Source: Octopus vulgaris (taxonomy: Eukaryota). From it: a stretch of 64,000 nt of DNA. The DNA is taken from NCBI GenBank assembly GCA_951406725.2, contig OX597820.1:58838001-58902000 (forward strand), given 5' to 3'. Positions 427-29,350 of this stretch are shown piece by piece (within the stretch, counting starts at the first letter, position 1; each line of letters opens with the position of its first letter). The notes under the pieces are model-generated. The model ran no database searches, was not told the DNA's origin, and saw only the letters and a list, made by a program, of their open reading frames with translations. Made by a program: the position numbers and the translations under genes.

Positions 427-1368
427 TTCTACTATCATTCTTGATGTTGTCTTGTCCTTCTCGGTCTCATATCCACCGAACCAATGAAAGTGGCTGCTTG
501 AAAGAGTAATGAAATTTCCCTCAAATTACACATAACAAGACTCATTGAATAAAAGCACTCCCAGATATCACGTGTCTTCTGTTCGACACTTCCAGACACA
601 TTGTCAGAGAAAAGACTGAATTATCATGGCTGCTGTGTCCTTAATCATAGGAGTGCCCCTTCAAAATTTACCAGAAGATAAAAAGCAACAACAGCATCAT
701 CGTCGTCGTCGGAAGTAGCGTAACTTAACGCATAACTGCATCTCTCCTCTGTCTAGTTGTCTGTCTGTCTCTCTGGTTGTCTGCCTGTCTGCCTTCTGCG
801 TGCGTACCTGCCTACCTGCCTGCCTGTCTGCTTGCCTGTATAGCTTTGTCCGTGACTGTGTTCGACTGACCCCTGCCTGTTGTTCTCTATTATAACAAGA
901 TGTATTTAGCTTAATCAAAGCCTGACTGGTTTTCAATCAGCAATTTGGAATTTGTTTGAATTTTTCTTAAATGTGATGTGTAGTTCTTGGGACGATTGAT
1001 TAGATTTTCCATGGCGTCATGCCTCAGTTTGAAAGACCCCGTTATGTTGTTTATTAAAACCTGATTGAAAACAGAATCCAGGTTCAAATTGAGGTAGAGA
1101 CATGCTACAACTGCAATATCCTTACCATAACATTCCATCTTGGAATATTATATTATAATTTCTAATATTGGCAGAAGAGAACATCCACTTTGGAGAGAAC
1201 TGACTTTGTAACCTTCGATAGATGAACGGGAAAGGTGAGTTTGATAGCGTTTGAATGTAAAAGGCGAAGGGGTGTAACAACTGCAAGGAAGTTTATCCGT
1301 CACTTTCTTGAATTTACTAATCCACTGAATTAATAACTTTTTTGTTATAATATCATCTCTGGTTGCAG

Positions 1369-1563
1369 GTGCAATGGTACAATTATTTGGCTGAAACAAA
1401 ATACCACCTTCCTTATCAGAAAGACACTATAGCTTTTACTATAATTGGTCGACCTGATATGTTTGAGAAAGCATTTAAAACATTCGTATGTAACAACACC
1501 AGCAAGCCACATATTGATACTGACTACAAGTTTATCATGTTTTATATGAAGAAGATCCAACAG
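1369..1563 (+). CDS. MMACHC: MMACHC-like paralogue A, exon 2 (VQWYNYLAETKYHLPYQKDTIAFTIIGRPDMFEKAFKTFVC...MKKIQQ)
   Basis: ttgcag|GTG acceptor and CAG|gtaagc donor, phase 0/0, 195 nt (same as human exon 2). Matches human VAWYNELL..FHLP...TLAFLV..PAMFDRALKPF. Exon 1 not seen; probably upstream of the window. Confidence 0.88.
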
Positions 1564-1691
1564 GTAAGCTTTTGAACATAATCCAAGAGTTAATCTAAAC
1601 TCAAGCCAAATTTTCAATACAGAACGATAGAATGATAAAACTGCATATACACACATCTTTGATCCATTTAACAGAAAGAAAGTCTCTAGAC

Positions 1692-4597
1692 CAGGGGTGG
1701 GCAAACTACGGCCCGCCATAGGTTTTCATGCGGCCCGCCGAGAGCTTTTATGAATCCCAACGTCTATGCAGATACTTCGTAACTGTTTCAGTTGTACGGT
1801 AATTCACAATAGTTTGCATTTTATTTCAGTTCACTGTTTCGCGCCTTCACAAAATTGTCCGCTGTTTGTTTGTTTCAGCTACCGTGAAGCGATGAAAAAT
1901 TTCGAGAAATATTCCCATGACATCATAATAAAACACATTTCCGGGTGAAGATATCTTTTCTGTGTTTTCTCGTCAGACCCTACAAAAACAAAAATTAATA
2001 GAACAATGAAACAAGTATTGTAGCAATACAACGAGTCAATCGATATGCTTGAAACATTCAAATAAATAAATCACGTGATAGATGGTGAAGAGGGCATGAT
2101 GGACGATGCGTTCGTTCCAATGAAGAAGCCGGCCATGTTAATAAAAGGGCTTGAACCAGCTTTTTCTGGACACAGAGAGCTGTGGTTGGTTATCATTCAC
2201 TCTATCGATTATTTGAATTTAGTACAGACACGAGTGTTTCAAACTAGCTTTTGTTGTCTGATAAAATTTACCCAAAATGAGTTGTTCGAAGCTATCTAAA
2301 AAGCGAAACATTGAAGAGCAATGTCGTGTTTTTAATGAAAATTGCACTGAAAAGTATTTCTTTACCGACGTTGGAGTGAAAGCTGCATGTTTGATTTGTT
2401 CTGAAACAGTTGCTGTGTTCAAGGAATATAATTTGAAACGCCACTTTCAAACGAAGCACGCCAATTTTGGACACAATTTATCAAAACAAGAACTGCAAAA
2501 GAAAGCAAATGATCTGACAAAACGTTTGAAGCAACAGCAAAATGTGTTTGATAAAACTTCCTCTTTACAAAGGAACGCGACAAAAGCAAGTTTTATATTG
2601 GCCAACAAAATTGCAAAGCAAAACAAGTCATTCGCAGAAGCAGAATTTATCAAAGATTGTATGGTTGATGCTGTCAGCGTTGTGTGTTCTGAAGTTAAGT
2701 CAAAAGTAGAAGCCATTTCCCTGTCACGAAGAACTATTGTTCGTCGCATTGATGCAATTGCCGTGAATATTCATGAACAGCTGTTAACAGCCAGTGGTCG
2801 ATTTCAGTGGTTTTCTATTGCTTTAGATGAGAGTACTGATATTCAGGATACTGCTCAGTTACTCATTTACATCAGAGAAATTGACGAAAACTTTGAAATT
2901 ACAGAGGAATTGTTATCTATGGCGTCTCTCAAAGACACTACTACTGGAAAAGATTTGTTCAACAGTGTCATTAACAGTTCAATCAGGTCTGGATTAACCC
3001 TAAATAAACTGGCCAGCATTACAACCGATGGAGCTCCTTCACTCACCGGTAAACATTCCGGCCTTGTGAAGTTGTTGAATGACAAAATCAAAGATTTTCC
3101 ACTACACAGTGTGTTGTCTTTTCACTGCATCATACATCAAGAAAGCCTTTGTAAGTCATCTTTAAAACTCAAACATGTCATCGAACCTGTGGTGCGTGCA
3201 GTGAATTTAATAAGATCACGGAGATTGAAACACAGGCAATTCCGAAGTTTCTTGGAGGATGTGGAGGCTGATTTTACTGATGTGCTGTACTACACAAATG
3301 TCCGCTGGTTAAGCATTGGAAAAGTTCTTAAGAGAGTATGGGACCTCAAAGCAGAGATTCTTATGTTTCTCAAAATGCAAGACATCTCCTGTGACTTTTT
3401 AAACGAAATGGGGAGTGACGAATGGGTTTGTGATTTTGCATTTGCTGTGGACATAAATCAGAAGCTGAATGAACTTAACACAAAACTGCAAGTCAAAGGT
3501 ATATTTGCTCATGAATTGTACCTGGAAGTGAAAGCTTTTCAATGGAAGCTTGGACTTTTTACCAAGCAGCTGAATGAACAAAAATTTATTCACTTCCCTC
3601 TGCTGAAAACACAGTCTGTTACACAAGAATCATCGGACAAGTACAGTTCCCAGTTGATGGCTTTACAAAAGGAATTCATTAGAAGATTTGCTGATTTCAA
3701 GGCAGTTGAAGGCCTGTTCGATTTGCTTAACTCACCTCTTGCCTGTGACATTGAAACAACTACCGAGGAACTGCAGATAGAACTGATTCATTTGCAAGCT
3801 GACAATTCTTTAAAGATGATGTTTGAAAGTAAACCACTGGTCGAGTTTTATGCTTCTCTACATTCAAAAAAGTTTCAAGATCTAAAAAAATTTGCAAGAA
3901 AGATGTTTGTGTTGTTTGCATCAACTTACATATGTGAGCAGACTTTCTCCATCATGAAAATTAACAAGGGGAAGAATCGATCACTTCTCATAGACTCAAA
4001 TCTTCAGTCAGTGTTAAGAATCAGCACAAGCAACTTGACACCTAATTTTGACAAACTGGTAAATGACGGTAGTCAGTTGCATCATTCTCATTGACATTGT
4101 TATTTACAGAGCCGCTTTGTTTTTCAAATAAATGCTTCAGGTGACGTTTCTAATTTCAGATATCAATTCATATTAATAAACTGTTATTTCTCTTTAAAAT
4201 CTTTTATTTTGGGTATCCTAGAATTTAAGTATAATATTCATCATGGTTGTCCATAATATTAAGAGGAGGTTGTCCACAATTAGTGCAGATTTTACTAGGA
4301 AAATTCCGTTCCTGGCAATTTGTAAGCAATAACAGGCTGTCCAAAATAGCCGAGGTTCCTGTAATAATTTCAACTATAGGAGCAAATAACCGAAAAACAT
4401 GAACCCGATACTCTAAAAAATAAATTAAATCACTTAAACCAGGAATATTTCACAAAATTTCCTTTCAATCAATTGTATGTTTATAGGTCTATAACCGCCT
4501 TTAAAAATATTTTCACTTGATTTTTTATAAATGAGGCCCGCCAAGGTTCCAAAGACGCACTGTGCGGCCCGCGATCAAAAAAGTTCGCCCACCCCTG
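1692..4597 (+). mobile_element. hAT DNA transposon, Buster/Charlie/SPIN (GTF2IRD2-like) type, copy 1, both ends present
   Basis: TIRs CAGGGGTGGGCAAACT (1692) and AGTTCGCCCACCCCTG (ends 4597). The 8-bp flanks are CTCTAGAC and CCTTAGAC, which are not identical. Contains an uninterrupted 605-aa transposase ORF. Confidence 0.95.
2277..4094 (+). CDS. hAT transposase, 605 aa
   Basis: BED-like CLIC...HFQTKH zinc finger; catalytic LDES, TTDGA and CEQTFS; CxxH (HCIIHQ); VRWLS; C-terminal hAT dimerisation region. Confidence 0.93.
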   Translation: MSCSKLSKKRNIEEQCRVFNENCTEKYFFTDVGVKAACLICSETVAVFKEYNLKRHFQTKHANFGHNLSKQELQKKANDLTKRLKQQQNVFDKTSSLQRNATKASFILANKIAKQNKSFAEAEFIKDCMVDAVSVVCSEVKSKVEAISLSRRTIVRRIDAIAVNIHEQLLTASGRFQWFSIALDESTDIQDTAQLLIYIREIDENFEITEELLSMASLKDTTTGKDLFNSVINSSIRSGLTLNKLASITTDGAPSLTGKHSGLVKLLNDKIKDFPLHSVLSFHCIIHQESLCKSSLKLKHVIEPVVRAVNLIRSRRLKHRQFRSFLEDVEADFTDVLYYTNVRWLSIGKVLKRVWDLKAEILMFLKMQDISCDFLNEMGSDEWVCDFAFAVDINQKLNELNTKLQVKGIFAHELYLEVKAFQWKLGLFTKQLNEQKFIHFPLLKTQSVTQESSDKYSSQLMALQKEFIRRFADFKAVEGLFDLLNSPLACDIETTTEELQIELIHLQADNSLKMMFESKPLVEFYASLHSKKFQDLKKFARKMFVLFASTYICEQTFSIMKINKGKNRSLLIDSNLQSVLRISTSNLTPNFDKLVNDGSQLHHSH

Positions 4598-4695
4598 CCT
4601 TAGACACTCCAAAAGGCAATATCCATCATTGCTACAACTGTTTCTTTTACAGTTACAAATATTATCTAATTCCGTCCACTTTCTTTATATTTCAG

Positions 4696-5037
4696 ACAAT
4701 TTATGGTGTTGCTATTCATCCACTGTATGGAGGATGGGTTAGATTCCCAGGTGTCATCGTATTTAAGAATGTTAAACTACCCAGAAATTTCCGTTGTCGG
4801 TCACCCCCAGACGTGATTCCTAGCATCAAAAAAAGAATAAAATTATTAAATGAATACAATAATGACTGGGCGAGTTGGAAATTCGCAGATATCATTCCAG
4901 TGGTGAAGAAATATACTCCAGAAGCAAAAGCATACTTTTCGATATTTGGAAAAAAGCGCGAAGAATTCGTAAAGGATGTCAAAAAGTATTGCACCAATTC
5001 TATGCCGAAGTTCGAAAGATACGTTAAAGTGGTTTAA
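4696..5037 (+). CDS. MMACHC: MMACHC-like terminal exon 4 (TIYGVAIHPLYGGWVRFPGVIVF...YVKVV*), assigned to paralogue B
   Basis: ttcag|ACA acceptor, phase 0. Matches human RISGVCIHPRFGGWF...RI.LL..FN.HW..W...Y..E.KAYFS.....R. Much closer to paralogue C exon 4 than to the exon at 10786. Confidence 0.88.
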   Translation, partial: TIYGVAIHPLYGGWVRFPGVIVFKNVKLPRNFRCRSPPDVIPSIKKRIKLLNEYNNDWASWKFADIIPVVKKYTPEAKAYFSIFGKKREEFVKDVKKYCTNSMPKFERYVKVV

Positions 5038-5099
5038 TTATTAACTAGTGTTTCACTAACTTCAAATATCAACTAGCATTTATGATTTCCTTACTAATG

Positions 5100-5882
5100 G
5101 TACTCTTTTACTTGTTTCATTCATTTGACTGTGGCCATGCTGGAGCACCGCCTTTAGTCGAGCAAATTGACCCCAGGACTCATTCTATCGGTCTCTTTTA
5201 CCGAACCGCTAAGTTACGGGGACGTAAACACCAGCATCGGTTGTCAAGCGATGTTGGGGGAGGGGACAAACACAGACACACAAACATACACACACACACA
5301 TATATATATATATACATAATTAATCAATATAGGGTGGCAAAAAAAATTTTCTTAGAATTTATTTGCCACCAGCGGCCTAGTGGGAAAAAATTAAATAGTC
5401 ATAGACCATTTATAAGTTCAACATCACAATCAAGGAATGGCCATAATAGGTCATTCACCCACTAGAAATAACAGCCAAAGCTTCAACCGCAAAATAACAT
5501 TAATTCCGCAAACCAGGAGAAAGTTAAAAAAAACATTTACCCTGTAATTTCTTATACGATGCACCGTTTCATCTATTGTTTAATGGTAAACTAACCTGAT
5601 TAAATTAAATCAAGCCAATCTTCCATAGGCCGATAGATTCGTCAGTAAGAAACAGCCAAGTTCCGAGCAGATATTATCACGAGGCAACTCTATCCCTGCC
5701 TCGGCAATATCTGACCTAAAATTTTCAAATCATCGCACTGGAGTGCCAAATCCACTCAGAAGGCTTTGGTCGGTTCGAAGCTATAGTAGAAGACACTTGG
5801 CCAAGGTGCCACGCAGTGGGACTGAACCCGGAACCATGTAGTTGGTAAGCAAGCTACTTACCACACAGCCAGTCCTACGCCT
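5100..5882 (-). mobile_element. tRNA-derived SINE family 1, split by an unrelated insertion (about 5320-5745)
   Basis: Head GGCGTAGGACTGGCTGTGTGGTAAGTAGC at the right end and tail ...CAGTCAAATGAATGAAACAAGTAAAAGAG at the left end. Same family at 19755, 23497, 33100 and 54300. Confidence 0.75.
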
Positions 5883-7190
5883 ATCTATATTTAGTAAAAA
5901 ATTGTTTCTTGCATATCTCCTCTTCACTATAATTCTCTTGCATTTATAAAAATAGGATCACATGCGGTCGTATCGTGTAAGAGACACGGTCGCACGTGGT
6001 CATATTCTTAATGAAATATTACAGACCACATAATACATGCAGCGGCAATAGAACACACGTGGAATGACAACAATATTTCTTTTTGAGATATATACATTAT
6101 TTATTTTACATATTTTACAATCATGTTGGTTGGAAGTTTGTAAGTGTTAGCATGTTTTTGTGTCTGTGTGTTCGTGAGGCATAAAAGGTACTGACCAGAG
6201 GAATAACAATGGAATTTAGTTCACAGTTCATGTTGTTGGTATCAGCCTAGCAACAGGTAGTAGCAGATGGCTTAAGGTAGTTCTTAGAAGAACTAGAACT
6301 CAAGACAGATAATTGATTTACCGTTTATGAGGTACACGGTGTGTAAGCGTTCCATATCAAGATGTTGCGTCTCGTAGTTGAGATTAATTGAATCACTTGT
6401 TGTGTTTATCTTTCTCTTGATATGAATATACTTCCAGATATATTAACTGTAGCCGTTTTTCCCGTGGTGAGATTTTCACCTAACCGCTATAGCTGAATCT
6501 GTAGTTGTCTTGTGTACAAATTAAATCTTCGATGTTTGGCGATGAGTTGTGACTGTCGCTTGGTTTTTGCTGCGTCTTCATATAAAACCTGTGCTTTCAT
6601 ATGATTACTGGCCATATCGATTCGGCCTGTCATTGGGTATTAGTCACGGGGAGTCAGAGGGTAGTAATGATCCTGGGTTTGTATATCTAAAAGAAATAAT
6701 ACTCTTACAGACAGGTGAAATTATTATTATTATTGATTCAGAAATATATCTAAAATTCGTGGACAGGAGGGCAATAACTATCAGCTTAAAATTCAAACCA
6801 TATTTGAACTTTTATACGGCTGCAAGTCCTTCCGTGTCCGTAGTGGATCAGAATTTTCAAAACAACCATTATGGATTTCTGCAAGTTCCTTCCTGTTCAG
6901 TGCACATTTGTGTGTGCGCGCATATGTGTGTATCCCCGAAGCATACCGTACATCCTCGAGTATAATCCGCAAAATTCCCCAAAATTTAAAGGTCAAAATC
7001 CCTAGTGCGTACTATTTACGAGGTTAAAAATGAAAGATATTTCGAAGAAATGCCCAAGTCTCTATTTGCTGTCCGGCAATGTTTATTCAGATGCATTTTT
7101 TATATTTTACATTTTTATATTTTACATTTTTATATTTTTATATTTATATGTATATGGTTAAATAATCTTTTTCACAATTATAACAAATTT

Positions 7191-7306
7191 AATTCTCTGA
7201 AGAGGCCGTGGGGCATCCTTGTTAATGCCTCATTTATACCTGCCTTTATGGCTTATAGGTTAAATGAGGTATGACAGCCCTCACTGCCGAAACAGCTGTC
7301 AGATTT
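7191..7306 (+). ncRNA. Type I hammerhead ribozyme motif (Penelope-associated type), long stem II
   Basis: aattct-CTGAAGA-ggc[...gcctcattta...taaatgaggt...]gcc-GAAA-cagctg-TC-agattt; palindromic stem III. Confidence 0.7.
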
Positions 7307-7486
7307 GATTTAATTACATATTATATTTGAAATTTTATACTTATATCTCTTTGTCTATTTACTTTTACTGTATATTTTGTATAATGCCTTTACTGATATG
7401 TAATGGTGTAATAAAGTATTGATTGGGTATCATCTGATGGTTGATGTTTTATTGATTTAAGTATGTTTCTCCATTTTCTAATTTTG

Positions 7487-7528
<42 letters not shown>

Positions 7529-7582
7529 ATATTTCGGTACTCCAGCAATGGCTTCAGTCAAATGACTGAAATGAATAAAAGA

Positions 7583-7626
<44 letters not shown>

Positions 7627-8059
7627 TAAGGCTACCATTGGTTTCATGTCAAGAAGAGTTGGATATCTAAATATCTTAACAATTCTCAATCCCATCACAT
7701 GGATAAAAGTGGTTCGCCTCAATTTTGGTAAACAATCTTGTTTCATTCAAGGATTCACTCATAAGTTAGCGTAAATAAAACAACGAAACAATGAATCAAG
7801 GGGCGCTACTCTAGAAGGCATTTCTTTGAGTATGTCTCCCTTGTGTTTTCCATATTTGTATGATCTAAGCAAGGTGTTTTGTGCTTGTATGTTGGGGCTA
7901 ATCCTTCTTTGTGTGGAATTTTTGATATTTCTTCTTTATTGTGTGAAGTTTGTGTTCTATGTGTGTTTACGTATGTAGAGCTGCTATCCTGGCAGGGTTG
8001 CCCTTGTTTGTAGTTATCCACGTTTATAGGGGGGGGGGGGGTCTTCTGTTAAGTATTTT

Positions 8060-8330
8060 AGAGTAAAATATTGCTTATGTGAAGGTTTCATATCTAATGT
8101 TTAAGATGTTGCCTGTTGTTTGAATAATATTTAATTTTCAGTAATGCAGAGTTCACATTTGGTGCCCCGTCCTCTGTATCTTTTTTTTTTCTTTTTTTTT
8201 TTGGCTTTAGCAATGATTTTTCATTCTATCTGGGGGTGTTTCCCCAGACAGACATTATCTTATCCACTGATGGACATTGAAAGATGGTTTGAAGAAGCCT
8301 AATTTCTCAAGATTGGTATTTAGGCAGAGT
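8060..8330 (-). mobile_element. Degenerate Penelope-like element, GIY-YIG C-terminal fragment
   Basis: Minus-strand remnant KIIAKAK...YRGRGTKCELCITE, resembling the PLE W.I...Y....C.LC..EK motif. Confidence 0.5.
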
Positions 8331-8334
8331 GTTA

Positions 8335-9505
8335 TACATATCCCAGGGCCCCATTAATTACAAGTATAAACCTGAACTTGTAATCTGGATATAGAGTAAC
8401 TACAGATTTCTCAATAATTCAGCTCAGATATTCTCTTTTTCACTGATCTTCAGCTTTATGCTAACATCCGCTGGTCAGCTAATTTCCACAACTGTACACA
8501 GCTTCTCTTCTTTATCCCAAATCCTTATATCAGGTGTGTTGTGCTTACATTTTATTGAGGTCTTCACTGAGACATTCCACCAGTACTCCTTTTAGTATGA
8601 GTGGCTATGGCTTCTACCATACTGTGGGTCCTTATTTGTTTGTCCTTGGGGTTATCCTTCCGACGGATTTCATTATAGAATGTCCTAGCTACAACATCAC
8701 GTCTCAAAGAGAGATAATACCGTGATGACATTTTCAAACAACTACTTATGATGTGGGTGATATCTTTGCTGTTATCTCCACAACGTCTGCATCGGTTGTC
8801 ACATTTTACTGCTTTTCCTGCATCTCTATCCCGTTTGTGCATCAGGTATTTGGTTCATATTTCCTGTTCCTAGATTGCAAACGCATATCCTTCAAAGTGG
8901 GAGGTAGTAATCCGCCTATTGGTCCATAATAGACTGCTTTGATGATCAATGTTACTATCATCTCGGAGCTTTCTACTAACATATCTATGCATAGTCTTCT
9001 GCTCATATAAGCTCATCTTTTCATCTGATGATACGTTGCGGTAGAGTCGTGCGACTTCTTTGGGCATGTGTTCTAGGTAATGAGACAAGGAATGTTGCTC
9101 AAGGACTGCCTTCCAGCTCTTACGATGTTATCAGCTTCATGTATGCAAACTTGGTCAAGGGATGCACTTCGACACTTGGTGATTAAAAGATGTTGCCGAA
9201 GGGATATGATACGACATTCAAAGGTATTTTGGATTGATGTTAAAGCCTCTGCTGCCTTGTTTTCGTTTTAGGTAGAAGCGGTCTACGTTACTGTTTATGT
9301 GGAAATTATGTGTGCTTGTTAGTATTTTTCGGATTTTCACGTCAATGGCTCGGATCTCATCAAACGTCTAATCAAGCAGCCCAAATGTTGGTATGAGTAC
9401 TGGAACTGCAAACACATTGTGGGCTATTATTTTATTGAATGCAGAGAGTTCTGGGGTCCAAATTTCCTTTATTCAGCTGTAATATTCTTTAGTGACACGT
9501 GTTTT
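8335..9505 (-). mobile_element. Degenerate R4/Dong-like non-LTR retrotransposon (RT C-terminus, CCHC, RLE)
   Basis: EGYAFAI.EQEI, CRRC...HIISSC, R.D and P.I motifs with stops and frameshifts. Confidence 0.75.
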
Positions 9506-9600
9506 ATTACAGGTGCCATTGTATGTATGTATGTATGTATGTATGTATGTATATATGTATGTGTAGGTAGGTAGGTAGGTTGGTAGGTAGGTAGGAATGC

Positions 9601-10004
9601 GGCGATCTCGCAGAATCGTTAGCACGCCGGACGAAATGCTTAGCGGTATTTCGTCTGCCCCTACGTTCTGAGTTCAAATTCCGCCGAGGCTGACTTTGCC
9701 TTTCATCCTTTCGGGGTCGATTAAATAAGCACCAGTTACGCACTGGGGGTCGATGTAATCGACTTAATACCTATGTCTGTCCTTGTTTGTTCCCTCTGTG
9801 TTTAGCCCCTTGTGGGTAATAAAGAAATAGGTATTTCGTCTGCCCCTACGTTCTGAGTTCAAATTCCGCCGGGGCTGACTTTGCCTTTCATCCTTTCGGG
9901 GTCGATTAAATAAGTACTAGTTACGCACTGGGGTCGATATAATCGACTTAATACCTATGTCTGTCCTCTCTGTGTTTAGCCCCTTGTGGCTAGTAAAGAA
10001 ATAG
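9601..10004 (+). mobile_element. SINE family 2 with a tandemly repeated body+tail unit
   Basis: GGCGATCTCGCAGAATCGTTAGC head, GCCTTTCATCCTTTCGGGGTCGA central block, ...AGCCCCTTGTGGGTAATAAAGAAA tail; the body is repeated. Same family at 49826 and 55220. Confidence 0.8.
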
Positions 10005-10411
10005 GTAGGTACGTAGGTACGATTGCGTATGATTGTATATATGTGTGTGTGTATAAATAAATAAATATGTATGTATGAATGTATGTGTGCATGTTAACTC
10101 AGTATTGAGGATTCTGTTGTTTCATGTAACCGTTGAGATTCGATTTGCGACCTGAAAGTAAGTATTGAGTGCACAAGAGAAAGTGACTGTGAACTGTCTT
10201 AAAGGAGAAAATTGAGATTACGAGAAAACGCAATTTTATTCATTTGCACAACACTGCCATTTCTCAAAATGATTTGAAATAAAATACGATATTTCTTTTC
10301 GTGGTTTGGCTTGGTTTGCATCATTGGATTTCTGAAAGAGTTACTATTCTTTTAATGTTATAACTATTATGAGGAATTTGGAAGAAAATCTTTAGAATTT
10401 ACTTTCAAGCT

Positions 10412-10786
10412 TCATAGACACAAACAAAATCCCCCAAAAGGTATAAAGGCTGGAAGAATATTCTTAAAGTAATACGCGAATCGCACTTCTTTGCATGAAT
10501 GTTTCGTTTCTCTAACTATTGAAATTGTCTGACTTAATTTTGAAGAGAAATATTGTTTTGCTTCCTCAGAAAACGGTTGCCTTCCCGGCATAAAAGAAGC
10601 ATGTCGCCATTCCATAGTACCATTGTGAAGTGACTGTAGAATATAACTTCTAGGTTCATGAGATGGAAGGGCATCGAATGGGAGAGGATAAAGAAGACTG
10701 GGCAGTTTGAAATCTGGAAAAACAATCACTGCTGGGACAGTAAACCATGCGCCATACTTGTGATGGACTGCAAATTCAAGTGGCTT
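10412..10786 (-). CDS. MMACHC: MMACHC-like paralogue A, terminal exon 4 (KPLEFAVHHKYGAWFTVPAVIVFPD...FSEEAKQYFSS...CLCL*)
   Basis: tttacag|AAG acceptor, phase 0. Matches H..YG.WF, P.D.LP and SEE.K.YFS of human exon 4. Confidence 0.82.
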   Translation of the reverse strand, partial: KPLEFAVHHKYGAWFTVPAVIVFPDFKLPSLLYPLPFDALPSHEPRSYILQSLHNGTMEWRHASFMPGRQPFSEEAKQYFSSKLSQTISIVRETKHSCKEVRFAYYFKNILPAFIPFGGFCLCL

Positions 10787-12171
10787 CTGTAAATAGACGA
10801 GAAAACATCATGAGGACACATAATATTAATTTCTGGCCATTTTTAAAAAAATTATTATCTAATCTTTGGTGTTGACGTCACCGATTTTTTTAATTATGAA
10901 GAATGATAAAATAAATTCCATTTTTGCCAGCGTAAAAGTATAAAAGTATAAAATAATTGTTTTGACAATATAAAGCTCAAAGGTACAAAGGTAAAGACAG
11001 GGCCAGCCTAAACTTACCACCTACCCTCATTCTTCTGTGAAAAAAATAAGTTGACACGCCCAATTACCAAGGGCTTAAATACTGGGCTGTGTACCTTAGA
11101 TATTATATTGTCAAGCGAAAGGATTAAATGCAGTAATGCCAAAAGCGCCCAAAATGCTTTCAAACCTTGTGCCCACTTATCTAAAGAGAAACACCTACAA
11201 GCTTGTTTACCAATTGCTATACGCATGAATAAATTCCAAACACTAACATATCCCCAAATTTAATCAATGAAAAATTTTCCAAAACCCCTTTCCATAACAA
11301 CTGACTACAAAAACCTAATTACTATTCACTAGAGTAGCGGGTGGGGGCGGTTCGCCCCGGGCGGCACTTTTAAAGAGGTGGCACTTTTGGGTCTGCTGTA
11401 GGCTATAGATGATTTGAACTCAACAGAAACTATATAAAAGCAAGACCGACGATGGGTTGGCTGGCCGAAACTTCGAAGTCGCTGTCAACAACATTCTTGT
11501 GTAAGAATACAAAATTTGCACTTTACAAAAGAATGGAGTGACCCATCAGATTAATATGAAATTGATTTTATTATAACTGAACATAAAAACAAACACTAAT
11601 ATATGTACATACATGCGCGTGTGTGTGTGTGTGTGTGTGGACGGCGAATTTCGAAATAAACATGTCGTGCTAAAGCAATCCTTCAAATTTCTCAATTCAT
11701 TTTAAAAACTTTATTCTCACCAGAGAGAATTGTATGATGTTGAGGTCATAAGAAGTTAAAAACTTCGAGAACGTGAAATAATTCCTTTTAGTCTCGAAGC
11801 AAATGCAGCTACAAATAATAGCGTTTAAATACTGGGTTAAAACAGCTATGGGTAGAAAAGTCCCACGAGGAGCCTTAAACTTTTTCTATCCGAAGGAGTT
11901 CTAATCTAATATTCACACTCTATAATTTATAGCTTTATGTGCTTCGAGATTCACTTTGCAATCCTGTCATCTTTCAGGCTCGTACACATTACACTACACA
12001 AGCATGTTCGATTACTGTATTATCCGAGTGTGACACTCATTGTAGCTCGCAAATAAATATTGTTTATTAAATATTTATCTCTCGTTGGATGGAATATATA
12101 TTTGTAGATACAGCCAATAATGGAACGGTACACACATACATACATACATACATACATACGTACATACATGC

Positions 12172-12206
<35 letters not shown>

Positions 12207-12288
12207 TTATTTGAGCGAATAAAATCCAAACTTACAAGGAAAAAGAATTCAATTAGAAATATTAAATCAAATTCCACACAATATAATA

Positions 12289-12678
12289 TATATATAAAAT
12301 ATTAGAAAAAAAAACACCTTTTATCAATTCAAAATGAATAACTAAATTACATCTAGAAAATTACATATAATAGAAAATTAAAAATTAAAATAACAATTAA
12401 ATAGTAAAGATTAAGTAAATTACAAAAATAATATAATGTATATAATAGGTAGAAAAACGACACGTGTTTCGCTGCTATATTTAAGAAATGATTATAGTAG
12501 TAGAGAAATCACTTGCATATAAATATAGTCGCTCATCAGGTTAAAAATATAATCTTTACTTTTTAACTGTTATTTTAATTTTAACTTTTCTATTATACGT
12601 AATTTTCTAGATGGTGTAATTTAATTATTCATTTTGAATTGATAAAAGGTGTTTTTTTTCTAATATTTTATATATATA
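12289..12678. repeat. AT-rich foldback with arms of about 125 bp, enclosing a hammerhead motif
   Basis: Arm about 12289-12413 is the imperfect reverse complement of about 12550-12678. Confidence 0.8.
12456..12542 (-). ncRNA. Type I hammerhead ribozyme motif
   Basis: Minus strand aac-CTGATGA-gc[ctatattta...taaatatag]gc-GAAA-cacgtg-TC-gtt. Confidence 0.65.
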
Positions 12679-12706
12679 TATATATAATTTATGATGATGA
12701 TGATGA

Positions 12707-12752
<46 letters not shown>

Positions 12753-13028
12753 TCAAAATGCGGGTGAAAAAATTGGATATTAATTTGATAACATCAATTT
12801 TAACACCAGTGGTCTAGCATATAAAAAAAACTGAGATTCAGTAAATAGTATTTCATACATAAATATAAGTGAGAATTTTTTTTAACCACTATGTGGAAAA
12901 CCTTATGCTAGAAGATACACTATGGTCTTAACCACTAAGAATTGTTCTCCAGAAAATTTAGCACATCAGAAACGTAAGCGAGTAAGACAAATGAAAAGTA
13001 ACAAAAAGTGTTACTCACTCTTACTCTC

Positions 13029-13104
<76 letters not shown>

Positions 13105-13114
13105 ACTTTCTCTC

Positions 13115-13179
<65 letters not shown>

Positions 13180-13676
13180 TTCTCTCTGTCTCACTCACTC
13201 TCTCTGATACGCAAGAGAGCGCATAGGTGCAAAACAAAATGGGAAAAAATAGGGGAAAAAGTAGTACTCGAATACTAAAAGTGGAGCGAAATGCTACTTT
13301 ACTGGAGTCCAAAGAATAAAAATACCTTAAAAACTGTTACTCAGAGTAGTCTGAATTATCACAACAGCTTGATGAACGGCTAAGTGAAACTGCAGCAAGA
13401 GGGTTTTTTTTGTTTTGGCTTCAATGAAATAGTATATACATGTGTGTGTGTGTGTGTGTGTGCACGCACAGACGTTTGTGTATCCGTGCATGTGTTTGCG
13501 CGCGTGTGTGTGCATGTGCGTGTGCGTGTACGGTGCTCTGCACCGTTTTTTATACTTTATAGGAAAACAGTTGCAGCGTGGAAGATGTTTGCAAGCCATT
13601 CAAGAACACAGAAAAACCGTTAGTTTCACTTCAACATTTAAATTTCGCAACCATCTCAGCTAGCAGGACATACTAC

Positions 13677-13718
13677 CCTGGACTGATGACGGGCAAGACC
13701 CAGAAACATGTCTCCAGG
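13677..13718 (+). ncRNA. Minimal type I hammerhead ribozyme motif
   Basis: cctgga-CTGATGA-cgggcaagaccca-GAAA-catg-TC-tccagg; perfect 6-bp stem I, palindromic stem III. Confidence 0.75.
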
Positions 13719-14021
13719 TGCTAACCCTAGCTGGCGGGGGTGCTTGCCTCCCCTTTGCAAATATAAGGACACAGGAAATGTGTCAAAGCCGACAGTATAC
13801 AACCACTATGTCGCCCCACCACCGCTCATGTCTCTCTGAGACATTTAGAAATTCAATATTTCTAATTTAAATTTCATTTGTATTAAAATATTTTCGTCGT
13901 TTTGAAACCGCGACCTATTCATCGACAAAACTTCGAGCTGCATCTCACTTGCTATGCAAGTATATTTTCGTAATTTATAGGAAAAATTATCGATCAACAA
14001 GAATCGGTTATGTCTACTTAC

Positions 14022-14165
14022 CTTTGTCTGTGGCCAAGTATAATGCAGGACATCAGCTTGAGTATATCGGTAAGCAACACCTGTGACGTGTGCGGCTATA
14101 TTGGTATTAAGATTGCTGTGATGTCCACGTACGTTTCCGAGAATAATATCGACGTTGTTGTATTT
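14022..14165 (-). CDS. MMACHC: MMACHC-like paralogue A, exon 3 (KYNNVDIILGNVRGHHSNLNTNIAAHVTGVAYRYTQADVLHYTWPQTK)
   Basis: Not in the ORF track; translated by hand. tttcag|AAA acceptor, AAG|gtaagt donor, 144 nt, phase 0/0. AAHVTGVAY.Y..ADV...W matches human [21 protein letters not shown]. Confidence 0.88.
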
Positions 14166-14603
14166 CTGAAACCGTTAGAGCAAAAAAAAAAAAAAAAAAA
14201 CGAAAAAGAAATCGATTGAATTTATTGATACAACAGGTACAGGCGTGACTGGGATTGGGGGTGTTTTCCAATCATGTAATCTTGGGTTCAATTCCAGTAT
14301 GCCTCACTCTGTGCGAGTGTCTTCTCCCCGGTAACTCTGGGCGGAGTATCTATGTATGTGTGATTGTGTTGTGCTACTCCCATCGTTTAACAACTGTTCT
14401 TGGTTTGTTTATGTCCCCATGAATTAGCGGTTCGGCAAAAAGCGACCGATAGAATAAGTACCAAAGTTAAAACGGAAATGGGCTCGGAACGGTGATATAT
14501 CTCTCTGCTGTCAGACAGTGTTATGCGTCGATTAGAGAAACATCTCAGTCGCAACAATAAAACGTGCAGGTCTTGCACAAAGGGGGATAAACGCAAGGAG
14601 ATA

Positions 14604-14676
<73 letters not shown>

Positions 14677-15737
14677 TCCAGATAGCGTCAAAACACGAGC
14701 AAAACAAAAAACTGTTCTCAGTATTTAAGGAAGCTGACAAATACAAACAAGAAATCATACCACCTAATAAACATGAAGAAGAAGAAGAAGAAGATGAAGA
14801 AACAACAAAAGCTATAAAACAAATGAAATCCAAACTAAAAATAGAACAGCAACGAACCATGATAAAACGATGGCAAGAAAAGCCCCTTCATGGTAAATAC
14901 TGGACTAAACTAAACGCAAAAGAAATAGACAAAGAAAAATCCCAGCAATGGTTGAGAAGCTCAGGACTCAAAGCAGAAACAGAGGGATTTTTAATTGCAG
15001 CACAAGACCAAAGCCTCCCCACCAGAAATTACCAAAAACATGTAATGAAAAGAAATATTACAAGTAACTGCAGAATATGTGGAAATGGACAAGAAACAAT
15101 AAATCATATTATCTCTAGCTGCCCAGTCCTGGCTAAGAAGGAATATATTCACAGACATGACAGAGTTGGAACCTACATACATTGGAAGCTATGCCAACAT
15201 TATGGAATAACAACAGAAAAAAGATGGTATAGGCACACACCAGAAAAGGTCACAGAAAACGAGAAAGCAACCATACTCTGGGATATGCCGATACACACAG
15301 ATAGAGAAATTAAGGCCAACAGACCAGATATAGTTGTCAGAGACCATGAAGAAAAAAATGCTTTCTAATTGATGTATCAATACCGGCTGATGACAACGTG
15401 TCTCTAAAAGAAATGGAGAAACTCTCAAAATACAAAGACCTGGAAATAGAGGTAACTAGAATGTGGAATCTGAAAACAGAAACAATTCCTATCATAGTAG
15501 GTGCATTAGGCATGATAAAAAAATATTCAGACAAATACATAACAAAAACACCAGGACTTACAAACACATATAACATACAGAAAATTGCACTACTAGGCAC
15601 TGCACACATCCTACGCAGAACACTTTCCATACAAAAACCATCAGAGCATCACAACAAATCACAGCACATACACAAGGCACACAGAGCTGCGCTCGGTAGT
15701 GGAGTGAAAGCACGCTATAAAAATAAAAATAAAACTA

Positions 15738-15740
<3 letters not shown>
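14677..15740 (+). mobile_element. 5'-truncated Dong/R4-like LINE inserted in (AAT)n
   Basis: ETEGFLIAAQDQ, CRIC...HIISSC, RHD, RPDIV..IDV...K..KY (RLE); one frameshift near 15360; (AAT)n on both sides. Confidence 0.9.
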
Positions 15741-15796
<56 letters not shown>

Positions 15797-16223
15797 TAAT
15801 AATAATAATAATAATAATAATAATTCGGGTCAAGGGACAATAGCTTGATGTTCTTTACAAATCCTACGGCTGATGTTCAAGTTTTGTAGTAAAATATGCG
15901 TAAGAAAACAATTCAAGACGGTCGAAGATCTGAAGAGAAAAGATTGTAAGGAAAATATTTGTAGCGAACAGCTACAGAATAGCTAAGCTAGGATTCGAGA
16001 CCAAATCCACATTTCTCCACATTGTCAAGCAAGTATTCGGTCTATTGTCTCAGTCCTGCACTCAGAAATTAATGAGATTGAGTTGACCTCTCACACCTTT
16101 TCTCCAGTCATAGAATGAACCATGGAACCAGAATATATTTTACTGCAACTACAAACAATGTGTATACACAAACAACGCGACGACGTTGTGTATTTCTTAT
16201 GTATTTTAACGAATATAATATTA

Positions 16224-16592
16224 CTAGCAGTATCGCCCGGCGTTGCTCGGGTTTGTAAGGGAAATAACTATAAAGCATTTTTAGAGAGTTATAGCTAAAA
16301 AATGTAAAAAAAATGGTAAATTTTATTTTTAGTTAAAAAGGTCGAGTTGCGTCCCCTAGACAGTCTGTGGTTTGTGTTTCTGATTCTCGACCCCATGTCG
16401 AATTTATCGATTTTTTTCAGAACTGAGGGAACTTTTCAAAATTTTCGCTGCGTTAGTTTTGAATTATGACATTGGGCTATGTGTGTGTCAAGTTTCATCA
16501 GAATCGGTTGAAAGCCGTGGTCAGGGTGAGGGTACAACCTAACAGACACACAGAAACACACACAGACAAACTGCCGTTTATATATAGAGAGA
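16224..16592 (-). mobile_element. Non-autonomous Helitron
   Basis: Minus strand starts 5'-TC, has subterminal hairpin CCCGAGCAACGCCGGG, ends CTAG-3', and sits in an A|T site. Confidence 0.75.
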
Positions 16593-16599
16593 TAATCGT

Positions 16600-16855
16600 G
16601 GAGGCGCGTGGCTTAGTGGTTAGTGTGTCAGCGTCACGATCGTAAGATTGTGGTTTCGATTCCTGGACCGGGCGATGCTTTGTGTTCCTGGGCAAAACAT
16701 TTCATTTCACGTTGCTACAGTTCACTCAGCTGGCAAAAATGAGTAATGCTGCAATGGACTGACGTCCTGTCCAGCTAGGGAACACATACGCCATAGAAAC
16801 CGGGAAACCGGGCCCATGAGCCTGGCTAGGCTTTAAAAGGGCGCATTTATTTATT
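16600..16855 (+). mobile_element. tRNA-derived SINE with V-domain-like central block
   Basis: A/B box-like head GGAGGCGCGTGGCTTAGTGG...GGTTTCGATTCC; CTGCAATGGACTGACGTCCTGTCCAG; (TTTA) tail. Confidence 0.65.
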
Positions 16856-17180
16856 AATATTCTAATGAACTTAATAAATGACCGTATCAAGCAGCTTTTC
16901 CGCTTTAGTCATTTCTCCGCTGCATCATGACATTATTATTTTATCGTTGTTACATATTTGTATGAGTGCCGCCGGATGTGAGACACTGTAGAGGTGAGGA
17001 GATGGGGGAAGAAAAACATTTATGCTCGGTAAGGTTATGCAGAGATGTGATGCATCTAGCTTGTTCCCAAAGAACAAAGATTGCTTTGATAGTGATAAAA
17101 ATAAAAACACTGCGATACATAGAGAGGGTGAAAAACTGTACGTTTATGTTAGAATGAGATTTTTGCCAGTCAGTCTAGAG

Positions 17181-19673
17181 CAGGGGTGGGCGAACTTTTT
17201 TGATCGTGGGCCGCACAGTGCGTCTTTGGAACCTTGGCGGGCCTCATTTATAAAAATCGAGTGAAAATATTTTTAAAGGCGGTTATAGACCTATAAACAT
17301 ACAATTGATTGAAAGGAAATTTTGTGAAATATTCCTGGTTTAAGTGATTTAATTTATTTTTTAGAGTATCGGGTTCATGTTTTTCGGTTATTTGCTCCTA
17401 TAGTTGAAATTATTACAGGAACCTCGGTTATTTTGGACAGCCTGTTATCGCTTACAAATTGCCAGGAACGGAATTTTCCTAGTAAAATCTGCACTAATTG
17501 TGGACAACCTCCTCTTAATATTATGGACAACCATGATGAATATTATACTTAAATTCTAGGATACCCAAAATAAAAGATTTTAAAGAGAAATAACAGTTTA
17601 TTAATATGAATTGATATCTGAAATTAGAAACGTCACCTGAAGCATTTATTTGAAGAACAAAGCGGCTCTGTAAATAACAATGTCAATGAGAATGATGCAG
17701 CTGACTACTGTCATTTACCAGTTTGTCAAAATTAGGTGTCAAGTTGCTTGTGCTGATTCTTAACACTGACTGAAGATTTGAGTCTGTGAGAAGTGATCGA
17801 TTCTTCCCCTTGTTAATTTTCATGATGGAGAAAGTCTGCTCACATATGTAAGTTGATGCAAACAACACAAACATCTTTCTTGCAAATTTTTTTAGATTTT
17901 GAAACTTTTTTGAATGTAGAGAAGCATAAAACTCGACCAGTGGTTTACTTTCAAACATCATCTTTAAAGAATTGTCGGCTTGCAAATGAATCAGTTCTAT
18001 CTGCAGTTCCTCGGTAGTTGTTTCAATGTCACAGGCAAGAGGTGAGTTAAGCAAATCGAACAGGCCTTCAACTGCCTTGAAATCAGCAAATCTTCTAATG
18101 AATTCCTTTTGTAAAGCCATCAACTGGGAACTATACTTGTCCGATGATTCTTGTGTAACTGACTGTGTTTTCAGCAGAGGGAAGTGAATAATTTTTTGCT
18201 CATTCAGCTGCTTGGCAAAAAGTCCGAGCTTCCATTGAAAAGCTTTCACTTCCAGGTACAATTCATGAGCAAATATACCTTTGCTTTGCAGTTTTGTGTT
18301 AAGTTAATTCAGCTTCTGCATTATGTCCACAGCAAATGCAAAATCACAAACCCATTCGTCACTCTCCATTTCGTTTAAAAAGTCACAGGAGATGTCTTGC
18401 ATTTTGAGAAACATAAGAATCTCTGCTTTGAGGTCCCATAATCTCTTAAGAACTTTTCCAATGCTTAACCAGCGGACATTTGTGTAGTACAGCACATCAG
18501 TAAAATCAGCCTCCACATCCTCCAAGAAACTTCGGAATTGCCTGTGTTTCAATCCCCGTGATCTTATTAAATTCACTGCACGCACCACAGGTTCGATGAC
18601 ATGTTTGAGTTTTAAAGATGACTTACAAAGGCTTTTTTGATGTATGATGCAGTGAAAAGACAAGACACTGTGTAGTGGAAAATCTTCTTTGATTTTGTCA
18701 TTCAACAACTTCACAAGGCCGGAATGTTTACTGGTGAGTGAAGGAGCTCCATCGGTTGTAATGCTGGCCAGTTTATTTAGGGTTAATCCAGACCTGATTG
18801 AACTGTTAATGACACTGTTGAACAAATCTTTTCCAGTAGTAGTGTCTTTGAGAGACGCCATAGATAACAATTCCTCTGTAATTTCAAAGTTTTCGTGAAT
18901 TTCTCTGATGTAAATGAGTAACTGAGCAGTATCCTGAATATCAGTACTCTCATCTAAAGCAATAGAAAACCACTGAAATCGACCACTGGCTGTTAACAGC
19001 TGTTCATGAATACTTACGGCAATTGCATCAATGCGACGAACAATAGTTCTTCGTGACAGGGAAATGGCTTCTACTTTTGACTTAACTTCAGGACACACAA
19101 CGCTGACAGCATCAACCATACAATCTTTGATAAATTCTGCTTCTGCGAATGACTTGTTTTGCTTTGCAATTTTGTTGGCCAATATAAAACTTGCTTTTGT
19201 CGCGTTCCTTTGTAAAGAGGAAGTTTTATCAAACACATTTTGCTGTTGCTTCAAACGTTTTGTCAGATCATTTGCTTTCTTTTGCAGTTCTTGTTTTGAT
19301 AAATTGTGTCCAAAATTGGCGTGCTTCGTTTGAAAGTGGCGTTTCAAATTATATTCCTTGAACACAGCAACTGTTTCAGAACAAATCAAACATGCAGCTT
19401 TCACTCCAACGTCGGTAAAGAAATACTTTTCAGTCCAATTTTCATTAAAAACACGACATTCTTCTTCAATTTTTCGCTTTTTAGATAGCTTCGAACAACT
19501 CATTTTGGGTAAATTTTATCAGACAACAAAAGCTAGTTTGAAACACTCGTGTCTGTACTAAATTCAAATAATCGATAGAGTGAATGATAACCAACCACAG
19601 CTCTGTGTCCAGAAAAAGCTGGTTCAAGCCCTTTTATTAACATGGCCGTCTTCTTCATTGGAACGAAACGCAT
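17181..19673 (-). mobile_element. hAT transposon copy 2, inverted relative to copy 1, left end deleted
   Basis: Right TIR at 17181. Near-identical to 2105-4597; similarity stops at about 19673. Flank GTCTAGAG, which is CTCTAGAC on the element strand. Confidence 0.95.
17683..19503 (-). pseudogene. hAT transposase with one in-frame premature stop (GAA>TAA at about 18304)
   Basis: ORFs 18304..19503 and 17683..18261 are in the same frame and together match the 605-aa copy. Confidence 0.9.
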
Positions 19674-19754
19674 TAGTATGTGTTAAACGAATGCATTATT
19701 GAGGACTTCTATATAATCAGATACCTTTGTTGTTATAGAAATTAAAGATATATA

Positions 19755-20095
19755 GGCGTAGGAGTGGCTGTGTTCTGGGTTCAGTCTCACTGCGTGGTAC
19801 CTTGGGCAAGTGTCTTCAACTATAGCCTCGGGCCGACCAAAGCCTTGTGAGTGGATTTGGTAGACAGAAACTGAAAGAAGCCCGTCGTATATATGTGTAT
19901 ATATATATATATGTGTTTGTGTGTGTGTGTGTGTATGTTTGTGTGTCTGTGTTTGCCCCCCCCCCCCAACATCGCTTAACAACCGATACTGGAGTGTTTC
20001 CGTCCTGGGGTTGATTTGCTCGACCAAAGGCAATGCTCCAGCATGACCACAGTCAAATGACTGAAACAAGTAAAAGAGTAAAAGAGTAAAAGAGT
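19755..20095 (+). mobile_element. SINE family 1 (internally deleted)
   Basis: GGCGTAGGAGTGGCTGTG head and (GTAAAAGA)n tail. Confidence 0.8.
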
Positions 20096-23137: not shown

Positions 23138-23287
23138 CTTATTTGCAGGCCAGGTATCCCTTGGGACATCTCTTCGCTGATAGTAATATGCGGCCCCCGA
23201 CACGTGTGCTGCTGTCTGTGATAAAACAAGAGGATGTCCGGGGCCCAGCATCTTGTAACTAGACAGGAAATCAGTCTCAGGATATAT
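23138..23287 (-). CDS. MMACHC: MMACHC-like paralogue B, exon 3 ([50 protein letters not shown])
   Basis: atacag|ATA acceptor, AAG|gtcagt donor, 150 nt, phase 0/0. [18 protein letters not shown] is nearly identical to human [18 protein letters not shown]. Confidence 0.93.
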
Positions 23288-27315: not shown

Positions 27316-27522
27316 AGCGAAGAATTTCTTGAAATACTTTTGGTTACAGTTATCAGTCGGGTCTCCGTCTAGGAGAACGGTAACATTTGATTTACAAATA
27401 CATGGAAGCAACGTTTTCTCGAACATATCTGGTGCTGCAACAACAGTTAGGGCCAGTGTATTTCGACTGTATTTCAGACGGAACGAGGGTTTCATTGATT
27501 TAATATCGTTGTAGCATCTCAC
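27316..27522 (-). CDS. MMACHC: MMACHC-like paralogue B, exon 2 (VRCYNDIKSMKPSFRLKYSRNTLALTVVAAPDMFEK...DPTDNCNQKYFKKFFA)
   Basis: atccag|GTG acceptor, GCT|gtaagt donor, 207 nt, phase 0/0. TLA.V..P.MF and DP.D.C match human. Confidence 0.9.
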
Positions 27523-28094
27523 CTGGATAAAAGAACAATATATATATAGAGAGAGAGAATTCAGGTAATATCTCGTTTGAAGAAGTAATAGGTATAAGCA
27601 ATTAATGCTCAAGTTGTTTGCTGCCTAAAACTCGAACTTGAACTGAAATCTAAGGGTTTTTGTGTTATAGCTGGCTAATGACGATTGGATATAGTCTGCT
27701 TATCATTTGAAAAGATACATTATTAACAGAATAAAAGTATAAATAAGCAAACAACGATTGAGTTGTTACATAAGTACAGGTCATAAAGAGGAAGTAAAAA
27801 ATAAATGTTTGTAACTAACCAGTTTCAACCTTCGTATACTGGTAGAATGTGTCACATAAAACATCTTGGCGTTGGTGAGAAAATTCTGTATTTTGGAAAT
27901 TATTTCTTGTTAAAGTTGTCGTATTTCGGTAATTTCAACCAATCAATGACGTGTATTCAGCTGAATAAAATTACTGCTGTTGTTTGTGATAACAACTTAT
28001 TTATGACATCGATTGTGCGTTTGTACTGGTTTTAGCTTTAAGATTTTAGAGTTAGGGTTAGGGTTTTAGGGTTTGACAGCATCATAACAAAAGC

Positions 28095-28760
28095 CTACTG
28101 GAAGCAGAACGGAAGAATTCCTAGTACTGTTAGCCGGAGTGTGGTAACACTGCTGAGAAAGGACGCCGACAATGGGGACGTCCTAAGGAATTTTTGGTCC
28201 AAAACGCTACTGAACACAGAATCTAAAATTTTGGTCAAGATATTAGCGAAAAGGTTGGCGTTTGTCGTTGGTAGTCTGATCGAGGATGCACAAACGTGCG
28301 CAGTCCTGAGCAGGTCTATCCACGACAACCTCCACCCTATACGATACATCATAGAGAGGGCTGGGACTAAAGCTGGCTTCGATGGTGTCCTGATCTTTTT
28401 ATATCAGTCGAAAGCTTTCGATAGAGTAGACCATCGCTACTTGGAAGACGTCCTTAAAGCAGTCGATTTCTGACCCGTTTTCTGAGGCTGGATTGCTGCA
28501 ATGCACAGCGGCACCTGCTCGGTGGTCAAAGTAAATGGCTACCTACTGGAACCGTTTAGTATCGCACATTCGGTTCGTCAGGGCTACCCACTGTCACCTC
28601 TTCTATATGTCCTGGCTCTCGAGCCACTTCTGCGGAAGTTGGAACAGTTAAGAGGTCTCCCTTTCTAAATTGGACTCGGAAGGGTAGTGTCAGCGTACGC
28701 GGACGACGTCACTATCATGGTGTTGGACGCCTCCAAAGTGGAGACGGTCAACTCCATTGT
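28095..28760 (+). mobile_element. Tx1/L1-clade LINE RT fragment (degenerate)
   Basis: LLNTESKILVKILAKRL, KAFDRVDH, VRQGYPLSP, SAYADD; contains stops. Confidence 0.85.
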
Positions 28761-29350
28761 AACGACCCGATGCTGTTGCTCCATGTCCACATTGGCACAT
28801 TCGGGAGGTCGAGTCGGTACCTGTCAGACAGTTGCAAACGTCTGAGCAGGTCTTTGAGGCATTTACATCCCCACCTATTCCCAACTCTACCCACAGTCTC
28901 GGTGCACGTCTAAGGTAGCGTTCCAATCCCCCACTAAAAGTAAAGGTCGGAACATTCCCAGGAAAACCTCTAGATGTCGAAAGAAATCCAGCCGACCTGT
29001 TCAGGACGGTGCATAAGCTGTTATCAGTCGAAAAGAACACCCATTACTGCCATCGACATCCAAGACGACCAGCCTACCTTCCGGGTCTAGGAATATTGTT
29101 CTTACTTTGATGTCCAGACTCATCCGAAAAAGCACCGCGGTACCTCCTCGGCACATTCTCGGCAGACACGGAGAAAAATAAATGTCGAATTGTCCGCCGA
29201 ACATGTGCTCGAGGACCCGTAGGTTGTGGAGTCTGGTCTCATGATAGCTATGATATCTACATTCTATGTCTTGATGTCATCTAACAAGTAGCCTTGTTTC
29301 CAAGGTGACCCCTAGCCACGCACATTTATACAACCTATTCTAAGCATGTT
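28761..29350 (-). mobile_element. Tx1/L1-clade LINE APE endonuclease fragment
   Basis: GGTAVLF...DPEGRLVVLDV...FRLITAYAP; PTFTFS...YL.R. Confidence 0.7.

Follow-up and report, generated by a model that had tools for sequence, protein, structure and literature searches.

We confirmed that a rearrangement marked by a hAT transposon has exchanged the 3' halves of two paralogous genes, here called A and B, in duplicates of both genes carried by the window, i.e. the whole stretch of 64,000 nucleotides analyzed (G000:C7:58838001-58902000 of the 2.8-Gb assembly; coordinates that are negative or exceed the window length refer to the 582 kb analyzed around it). The best reading of this exchange, to which we assign a probability of about 0.55, is ectopic recombination between two local hAT copies in the duplicates, which would then have become pseudogenes. 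The genes belong to the MMACHC family (CblC; Pfam PF16690), which acts in vitamin B12 processing; proteins of this family recorded under Octopus vulgaris are 100% identical to genes neighboring the window. The exons and the native proteins all matched this family, and the Pfam MMACHC profile detected five of the six A and B exons of the window at E ≤ 1.7e-9 and exon 3 of A weakly (E 0.039). The exons and segments concerned are as follows.

1369 to 1563, plus strand: exon 2 of MMACHC paralogue A, duplicate copy
14022 to 14165, minus strand: exon 3 of paralogue A
10412 to 10786, minus strand: exon 4 of paralogue A
27316 to 27522, minus strand: exon 2 of paralogue B
23138 to 23287, minus strand: exon 3 of paralogue B, identical to native B
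4696 to 5037, plus strand: exon 4 of paralogue B, with a single synonymous change relative to native B
30977 to 31058, no strand: position of a 5.7-kb deletion by which the window copy lost B exon 1 together with its upstream region
41935 to 61705, minus strand: duplicate of paralogue C in an inverted flank, with exons near 61622-61705, 49158-49364, 45103-45252 and 41935-42300
4598 to 17180, no strand: core segment S (B exon 4, A exon 4 and A exon 3), in the direction of the core natively joined to intact B

The pairing of these six exons into A (1369, 14165 and 10786) and B (27522, 23287 and 4696), as proposed in the first-pass annotation, was borne out at those places by the intact native genes, by the proteins P0001 and P0066, and by RNA-type contigs. 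An intact, element-free B (P0001) lies ~165 kb upstream of the window (–170542 to –158374), an intact, element-free A lies ~200 kb downstream (195695 to ~207140), and an intact C (P0002) was located at –196767 to –183476. The locus (58.64–59.06 Mb) contains at least three intact divergent MMACHC paralogues, and it differs from other MMACHC/CblC genes in this respect and in having exon-4 matches on another contig; two such matches (45% identity) were found on contig 2, at G000:C2:24443677-24443979 and 24491526-24491828. P0066 contains A exons 2-3-4 in the native order and is 83–90% identical; it therefore comes from another species, and the exon order checked there, in this one protein, is the native one. 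In a protein tree, B grouped with C and two Argonauta proteins, which suggests a possible octopod-wide expansion of MMACHC, and A fell outside on a long branch with an uncertain place. Exon 4 of the C duplicate (42250–42300, minus strand) showed dense substitutions in the conserved motif at the start of the exon relative to native C, together with small in-frame indels, and both reversed copies were identical. Intron 1 of B in the window carries a 2.7-kb insert at 27809–30500 that is absent from native B, with inverted arms of 627 bp that are 69% alike (28097–28723 and 29897–30522).

The exchange is bounded by two hAT copies in opposite orientation, about 98.3–98.5% identical to each other, and by their target sites.

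1684 to 1691, plus strand: target site d (A intron 2), left of hAT copy 1
1692 to 4597, plus strand: hAT copy 1, 2906 bp, full length with both termini
2277 to 4094, plus strand: open 605-aa transposase reading frame in copy 1
4598 to 4605, plus strand: target site t (B intron 3), right of copy 1, differing from d at 2 of 8 positions
17173 to 17180, minus strand: target site d, second occurrence, adjoining the right end of copy 2, an exact match to 1684-1691
17181 to 19673, minus strand: hAT copy 2, without element bases 1-414
19672 to 19790, minus strand: deletion junction to B intron 3 at the end of copy 2, with 2-bp microhomology

Three of the four target-site copies are present and exchanged, the fourth is absent, and native A and native B each have a single target. 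The exact partner of d that had been placed at the right end of copy 2 was found there, at 17173–17180 on the minus strand. The first-pass annotation had not recorded the loss of the fourth copy together with the left end of copy 2: the deletion at 19672–19790 removed 414 bp of the element and 96 bp of the intron, this target-site copy included, and its junction was found at two places in a genome search. In native A, the 1691 flank and the 17180 flank meet at a single target site carrying one substitution, and this empty site showed neither a doubled target nor an excision footprint. In native B, t is present once, in intron 3 at window coordinate –158810, and the sequence upstream of t is the flank of the truncated end of copy 2. 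The flanks of both elements thus map to the empty sites of the native genes, in agreement with the reciprocal, hAT-bounded exon exchange with exchanged target sites that had been claimed.

The 8-mer match taken alone is weak because the family prefers similar targets. A chance match is conceivable for the 8-mer, but it was ruled out by alignments of the 176-bp and ~225-bp flanks to the empty sites. A mutated single target duplication at copy 1 was also ruled out, since its two flanks belong to different native genes. Beside the empty target, native A (200068–200200, compared with window 17050–17180) differs from both element-bearing copies at 12 of 132 sites, well above the 3.4% core average; this excess divergence could be repair scarring or chance.

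The element shows the features of the hAT superfamily, with short TIRs and 8-bp target sites centered on TA. Presumably it is of the Spin/Charlie/Buster type, with which it shares the short TIRs, the 8-bp TA-centered sites, a transposase of ~605 aa and the Spin-doc zinc finger. In the copy 1 transposase, the Spin-doc zinc finger scored above the cut-off and Dimer_Tnp_hAT below it (E 0.007), and the frame (2277–4094) is fully open although the family is ~1% from its consensus; the copy 2 frame has a stop after codon 399. A genome search returned 28 internal element matches that were 96–99% identical to copy 1 (copy 1 itself aside), and internally deleted short derivatives are common in the family. 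Both termini were detected in 16 of the 24 non-local copies, and the other 8 were set aside. Among these 16 two-ended copies, the 8-bp target duplications were exact in 13, carried one difference in one, and carried 3 and 4 differences in the remaining two. Mismatched 8-bp flanks elsewhere in the family were seen at L113 (G000:C11:39.24 Mb; 3 differences), L118 (C14:24.19 Mb; 4 differences) and the short copy L009 (C4:171.88 Mb; 3 differences), which are candidates for further element-bounded rearrangements. The target choice is biased, with the same 8-mer as d at 1 of 23 independent other sites (read by eye; L099 and L105 entered once). L099 and L105 (G000:C11:34.66 and 34.76 Mb), which have the same left flank, form a 100/100 pair and lie ~94 kb apart, are another local duplication. 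A transposase transcript contig from run X16 was rejected as local expression, because its loose end matches another copy (L115 context).

The window forms the central unit of a segmental duplication of ~120 kb, some blocks of which are inverted or tripled. With X for the 67-kb block of C and B exons 1–3, S for the core of 12.6–15.4 kb, Y for the 43-kb block of A exons 2–1, and h and h' for the full and truncated elements, the order is: X, S, h', X-reversed; Y-reversed, h, S, h', X-reversed; gap; Y-reversed, S-reversed, h, Y. The X-to-Y junction at ~–39.9k (–39913/–39894) is element-free with a short filler, and an ordinary tandem duplication would look the same. Each swapped junction occurs twice in the 582 kb: the arrangement of A exon 2, element and B exon 4 at 1692 and again, inverted, near 218.4k–215.5k, and that of A exon 3, truncated element and B intron at 17181 and again at –145.8k. 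The duplicate elements differ at 42 of 2886 sites (1.46%) and at 23 of 2493 sites (0.92%), with 7–16 private substitutions per local copy. The window core carries 71 private substitutions among 6213 compared sites, and therefore is a real third sequence and not a mosaic of the other two; it differs by 2.3% from the upstream core, to which it is closer along most of its length, and by 3.5% from the other core.

The first-pass annotation had described a stand-alone 12.6-kb inversion, which was not supported as such, because this unit is embedded in the larger duplication, itself inverted and tripled, and has a core that runs collinear with native B. Since the core is in the ancestral direction, the segments reversed relative to the chromosome are the flanks, and the flipped part could equally be these ~160-kb flanks. 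Two routes both fit the order: a 12.6-kb flip within one duplicate followed by a larger flip, or a ~160-kb flip between adjacent duplicates followed by unequal exchange. Similarly, the statement that flipping the core back would yield two genes was correct for the exon order, which is restored, but not for the genes, which lack start codons and whose intact counterparts lie elsewhere.

We infer the following order of events, in which recombination is preferred over transposition. An ancestral unit would have held paralogues C, B and A, with B and A convergent, and ~120 kb of it would have been duplicated. A young hAT would then have inserted into A intron 2, and a second copy in the opposite orientation, probably a local hop of the first, into B intron 3. 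Ectopic recombination would have inverted the DNA between the copies (12.6 kb if they lay in one unit, ~160 kb if in neighboring units), which would have swapped the target sites as well as the 3' halves of both genes. Subsequently, a microhomology deletion of 0.5 kb would have taken the left end of one element, and unequal exchange would have generated a further copy, the unit of the window. The chimeras would now be 5'-truncated pseudogenes, and intact A, B and C persist.

The flanks have diverged by 1.8–3.5%, compared with 0.9–1.6% for the elements; together with the empty A site, this is as expected if duplication came first. The local element copies are 0.9–1.6% apart, and their medians to other copies are 1.6–1.8%. 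In a tree of 27 copies (L120 was omitted as a short fragment), which was mostly a star, the four local copies fell inside an open group of seven copies. A single origin of the local copies was not rejected (p-AU 0.32), and they formed one clade in 16% of bootstrap trees; their clustering was matched by only 3 of 500 shuffles. All four share two variants (sites 1232 and 2786), and two further variants, found only in the window's own element pair, hint at conversion.

Several observations count against ectopic recombination as we propose it. In a chimera scan, the shared variants were mosaic, and the switch point expected of ectopic recombination was not seen. One unequal crossover without conversion does not predict the pair ages (1.46% versus 0.92%) or the closeness of the cores (2.3% versus 3.5%), and the near identity of the flanking blocks (0.02% over 67 kb) beside an assembly gap is a further difficulty. 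Moreover, the rearrangement as found is not balanced, given the ~120-kb duplicated and partly tripled region and the 0.5-kb end deletion, although the surrounding duplication and the deletion may be separate events.

A possible, though somewhat unlikely, alternative is the aberrant transposition of a single element (a hybrid element insertion or sister-chromatid transposition), in which its left end on one sister chromatid and its right end on the other would jointly have entered B intron 3. Re-replication and end joining, of the sort described for maize composite insertions, could then have given rise to the two junctions and to the duplicated flanks in a single event. According to the available part of the Galileo report (PMC2775673), ectopic recombination and hybrid element insertion leave the same target-site pattern and are distinguished by whether the copies are chimeric or identical at origin. 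The two shared variants and the p-AU value fit hybrid-end transposition equally well, the local clustering agrees with it, and site t fits the target pattern of the family. The upstream arrangement (B, core, element, B reversed) and the downstream arrangement (A, core, element, A reversed) correspond to the two reciprocal palindromic products that such an event would give, closed by the one element-free junction at ~–39.9 kb. However, native A should then show an excision footprint, unless the target lay on a homologue lacking the element, and re-replicated flanks of 67 kb and 43 kb are needed, compared with the 10 kb or more given in the available part of 10.1101/2020.01.07.897926. In addition, the low bootstrap value for a local clade argues against this account, and two more local flips are required for the assembled order. 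The two candidate mechanisms named in the first-pass annotation, ectopic recombination and alternative transposition, both retain support, and ectopic recombination remains our preferred reading.

The stronger version, in which one hAT transposition with re-replication made the exon-swap junctions and the whole ~120-kb inverted MMACHC duplication in one step, appears doubtful. If true, the maize Ac composite insertion would have a naturally occurring and inherited parallel in an animal, and the family may have made such one-step events repeatedly, as 2 of the 16 other two-ended copies also have mismatched target sites.

Comparisons with known systems are drawn from the available parts of the cited reports. 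Inversion 2z3 of Drosophila buzzatii, generated by Galileo (PMC2775673), likewise has copies of a TIR element in opposite orientation, exchanged target duplications and single targets in the non-inverted state. In contrast, the octopus element is a hAT, both breakpoints are intronic and fall within paralogous genes, the non-inverted arrangement survives alongside as a paralogue, a deletion has removed one end of an element and one target copy, and the copies show mosaic variants with no chimeric switch point. In the chimeric genes and inversions generated by Ac/fAc at maize p1/p2, including P-oo (PMC1592236; PMC8225341), an intronic hAT also joins exons of linked paralogues, with precise junctions at the element ends and 8-bp target sites. 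Those chimeras arise from reversed ends of two elements, keep a promoter and are expressed, whereas the octopus exchange is reciprocal, natural and old, and its products lack exon 1. Composite insertions and sister-chromatid transpositions of Ac (PMC4270019; 10.1101/2020.01.07.897926) likewise involve duplicated host DNA bordered by element ends, inverted duplications and a repair junction free of the element. However, those events begin with two elements lying close together and leave behind an excision footprint, whereas the octopus locus has no footprint and duplicated flanks of 67 and 43 kb.

We also considered the possibility that the junctions are real but that the unit of the window is the arrangement of another haplotype stitched into the scaffold; the true locus would then have two units, maybe polymorphic in orientation. 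This reading would explain why the blocks flanking the window differ from their twins by only 6 isolated substitutions in 28.0 kb and 7 in 39.5 kb, and why 32 kb are present three times around a 100-N gap at 102306 (G000:C7:58940306-58940405), the surroundings of which are likely unmerged contig ends. An inverted 4-kb piece adjoins this gap. However, the repeated blocks differ by ~0.02% over 67 kb but by 0.19–0.33% over 35 kb, the divergence climbs smoothly toward the core (0.02%, then 0.4%, then ~2%) as in arrays formed by unequal crossover, and the sequence runs from the upstream cluster through the window with no N gap. False duplication is therefore improbable as an account of the whole unit, and the copy number of the middle unit and the flanking blocks may be recent or inflated by assembly.

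A mis-join through the 2.5-kb repeat, the caveat attached to the first-pass annotation, would imply two ordinary insertions with intact target duplications, and we consider it highly improbable because each junction occurs twice with private variants. The same error would be needed four times, once for each element copy, and two of these copies adjoin cores whose native junctions are free of the repeat and anchor them. Furthermore, derived variants common to both truncated copies extend from site 438 at the B end as far as sites 2431 and 2637 at the A end, with support of 100/98. We compared contigs over window positions 1000–5095 in four runs (the small-share metagenome runs X17–X20 were left out). 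No single record in these runs spans the whole element, so the linkage from flank to flank rests on the assembly. A contig of run X4, from another sample and study, matches 1000–1713 with 0 differences and reaches 22 bases into the element, below the 31-base bridge rule, and in both X4 and X8 (a second organism) the contig over B exon 4 stops exactly at 4598. From these stops, we infer that native and element-joined left neighbors of 4598 both exist in X4 and X8, and the contig breakpoints suggest that another individual and a second organism also have the element-to-B junction. The 1691/1692 boundary was crossed by none of the X8 contigs among those listed.

The chimeras are most likely dead duplicates without functional products. 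Both lack a start exon, and no promoter or start exon was kept. In A of the window, exon 1 lies 3.7 kb upstream of exon 2, outside the window, and its first 49 coding nucleotides with the ATG are gone, replaced by unrelated sequence. Exon 1 is missing altogether from the downstream A duplicate, whose B exon 4 carries a stop; in the upstream duplicate, B exon 3 is lost and A exon 4 has an insertion. Purifying selection was not seen on the A exons of the window: relative to native A, they carry 15 nonsynonymous changes over 529 sites and 3 synonymous changes over 140 sites (ratio 1.3). The 14 residue differences comprise 11 that arose in the window copy, 2 that arose in native A and 1 of ambiguous polarity. 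The B exons differ from native B by 3 nonsynonymous and 2 synonymous changes, too few to judge. In the contigs of two RNA-type runs (X10 and X16, whose RNA nature is a guess), B exon 4 runs into the end of B exon 3 in both, so that the ancestral B joint anticipated in the first-pass annotation was recovered; no chimeric joint appeared in either set, although A exon 2 is uncovered in both and contigs cannot prove absence.

It is very unlikely that exon shuffling has made a functional product here, or that the locus acts as a reversible switch, with new MMACHC isoforms or a transposase–MMACHC fusion as the outcome: the splice sites are intact, all joins are in phase 0 and the 2.5-kb repeats are still nearly identical, but without start exons and under relaxed selection the predicted products would include one lacking exon 3 and another containing two, and the downstream stop and the RNA-type contigs speak further against it. 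A public gene model, P0067, joins the transposase tail of copy 2 (17720–17875, minus strand) to A exons 3–4 (14022–14165 and 10622–10789), but it is labeled a hypothetical prediction. We found no support for the reversible or polymorphic inversion proposed earlier.

The searched literature, which lacks most subscription papers, yielded no report of an octopus MMACHC cluster, and none of the listed matches on hAT rearrangements in cephalopods concerned this locus, judging from titles and the beginnings of abstracts. The biological weight of the finding is limited because the products look like dead duplicates and this class of mechanism is established in Drosophila and maize. Nevertheless, the locus offers an unusually complete transposon-anchored record, with empty sites, both swapped junctions and later duplicates within 450 kb, and it links a young hAT burst to the local remodeling of a cephalopod gene cluster. 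Its weight would rise if the entire duplication proved to stem from a single aberrant transposition, or if chimeric transcription came to light.
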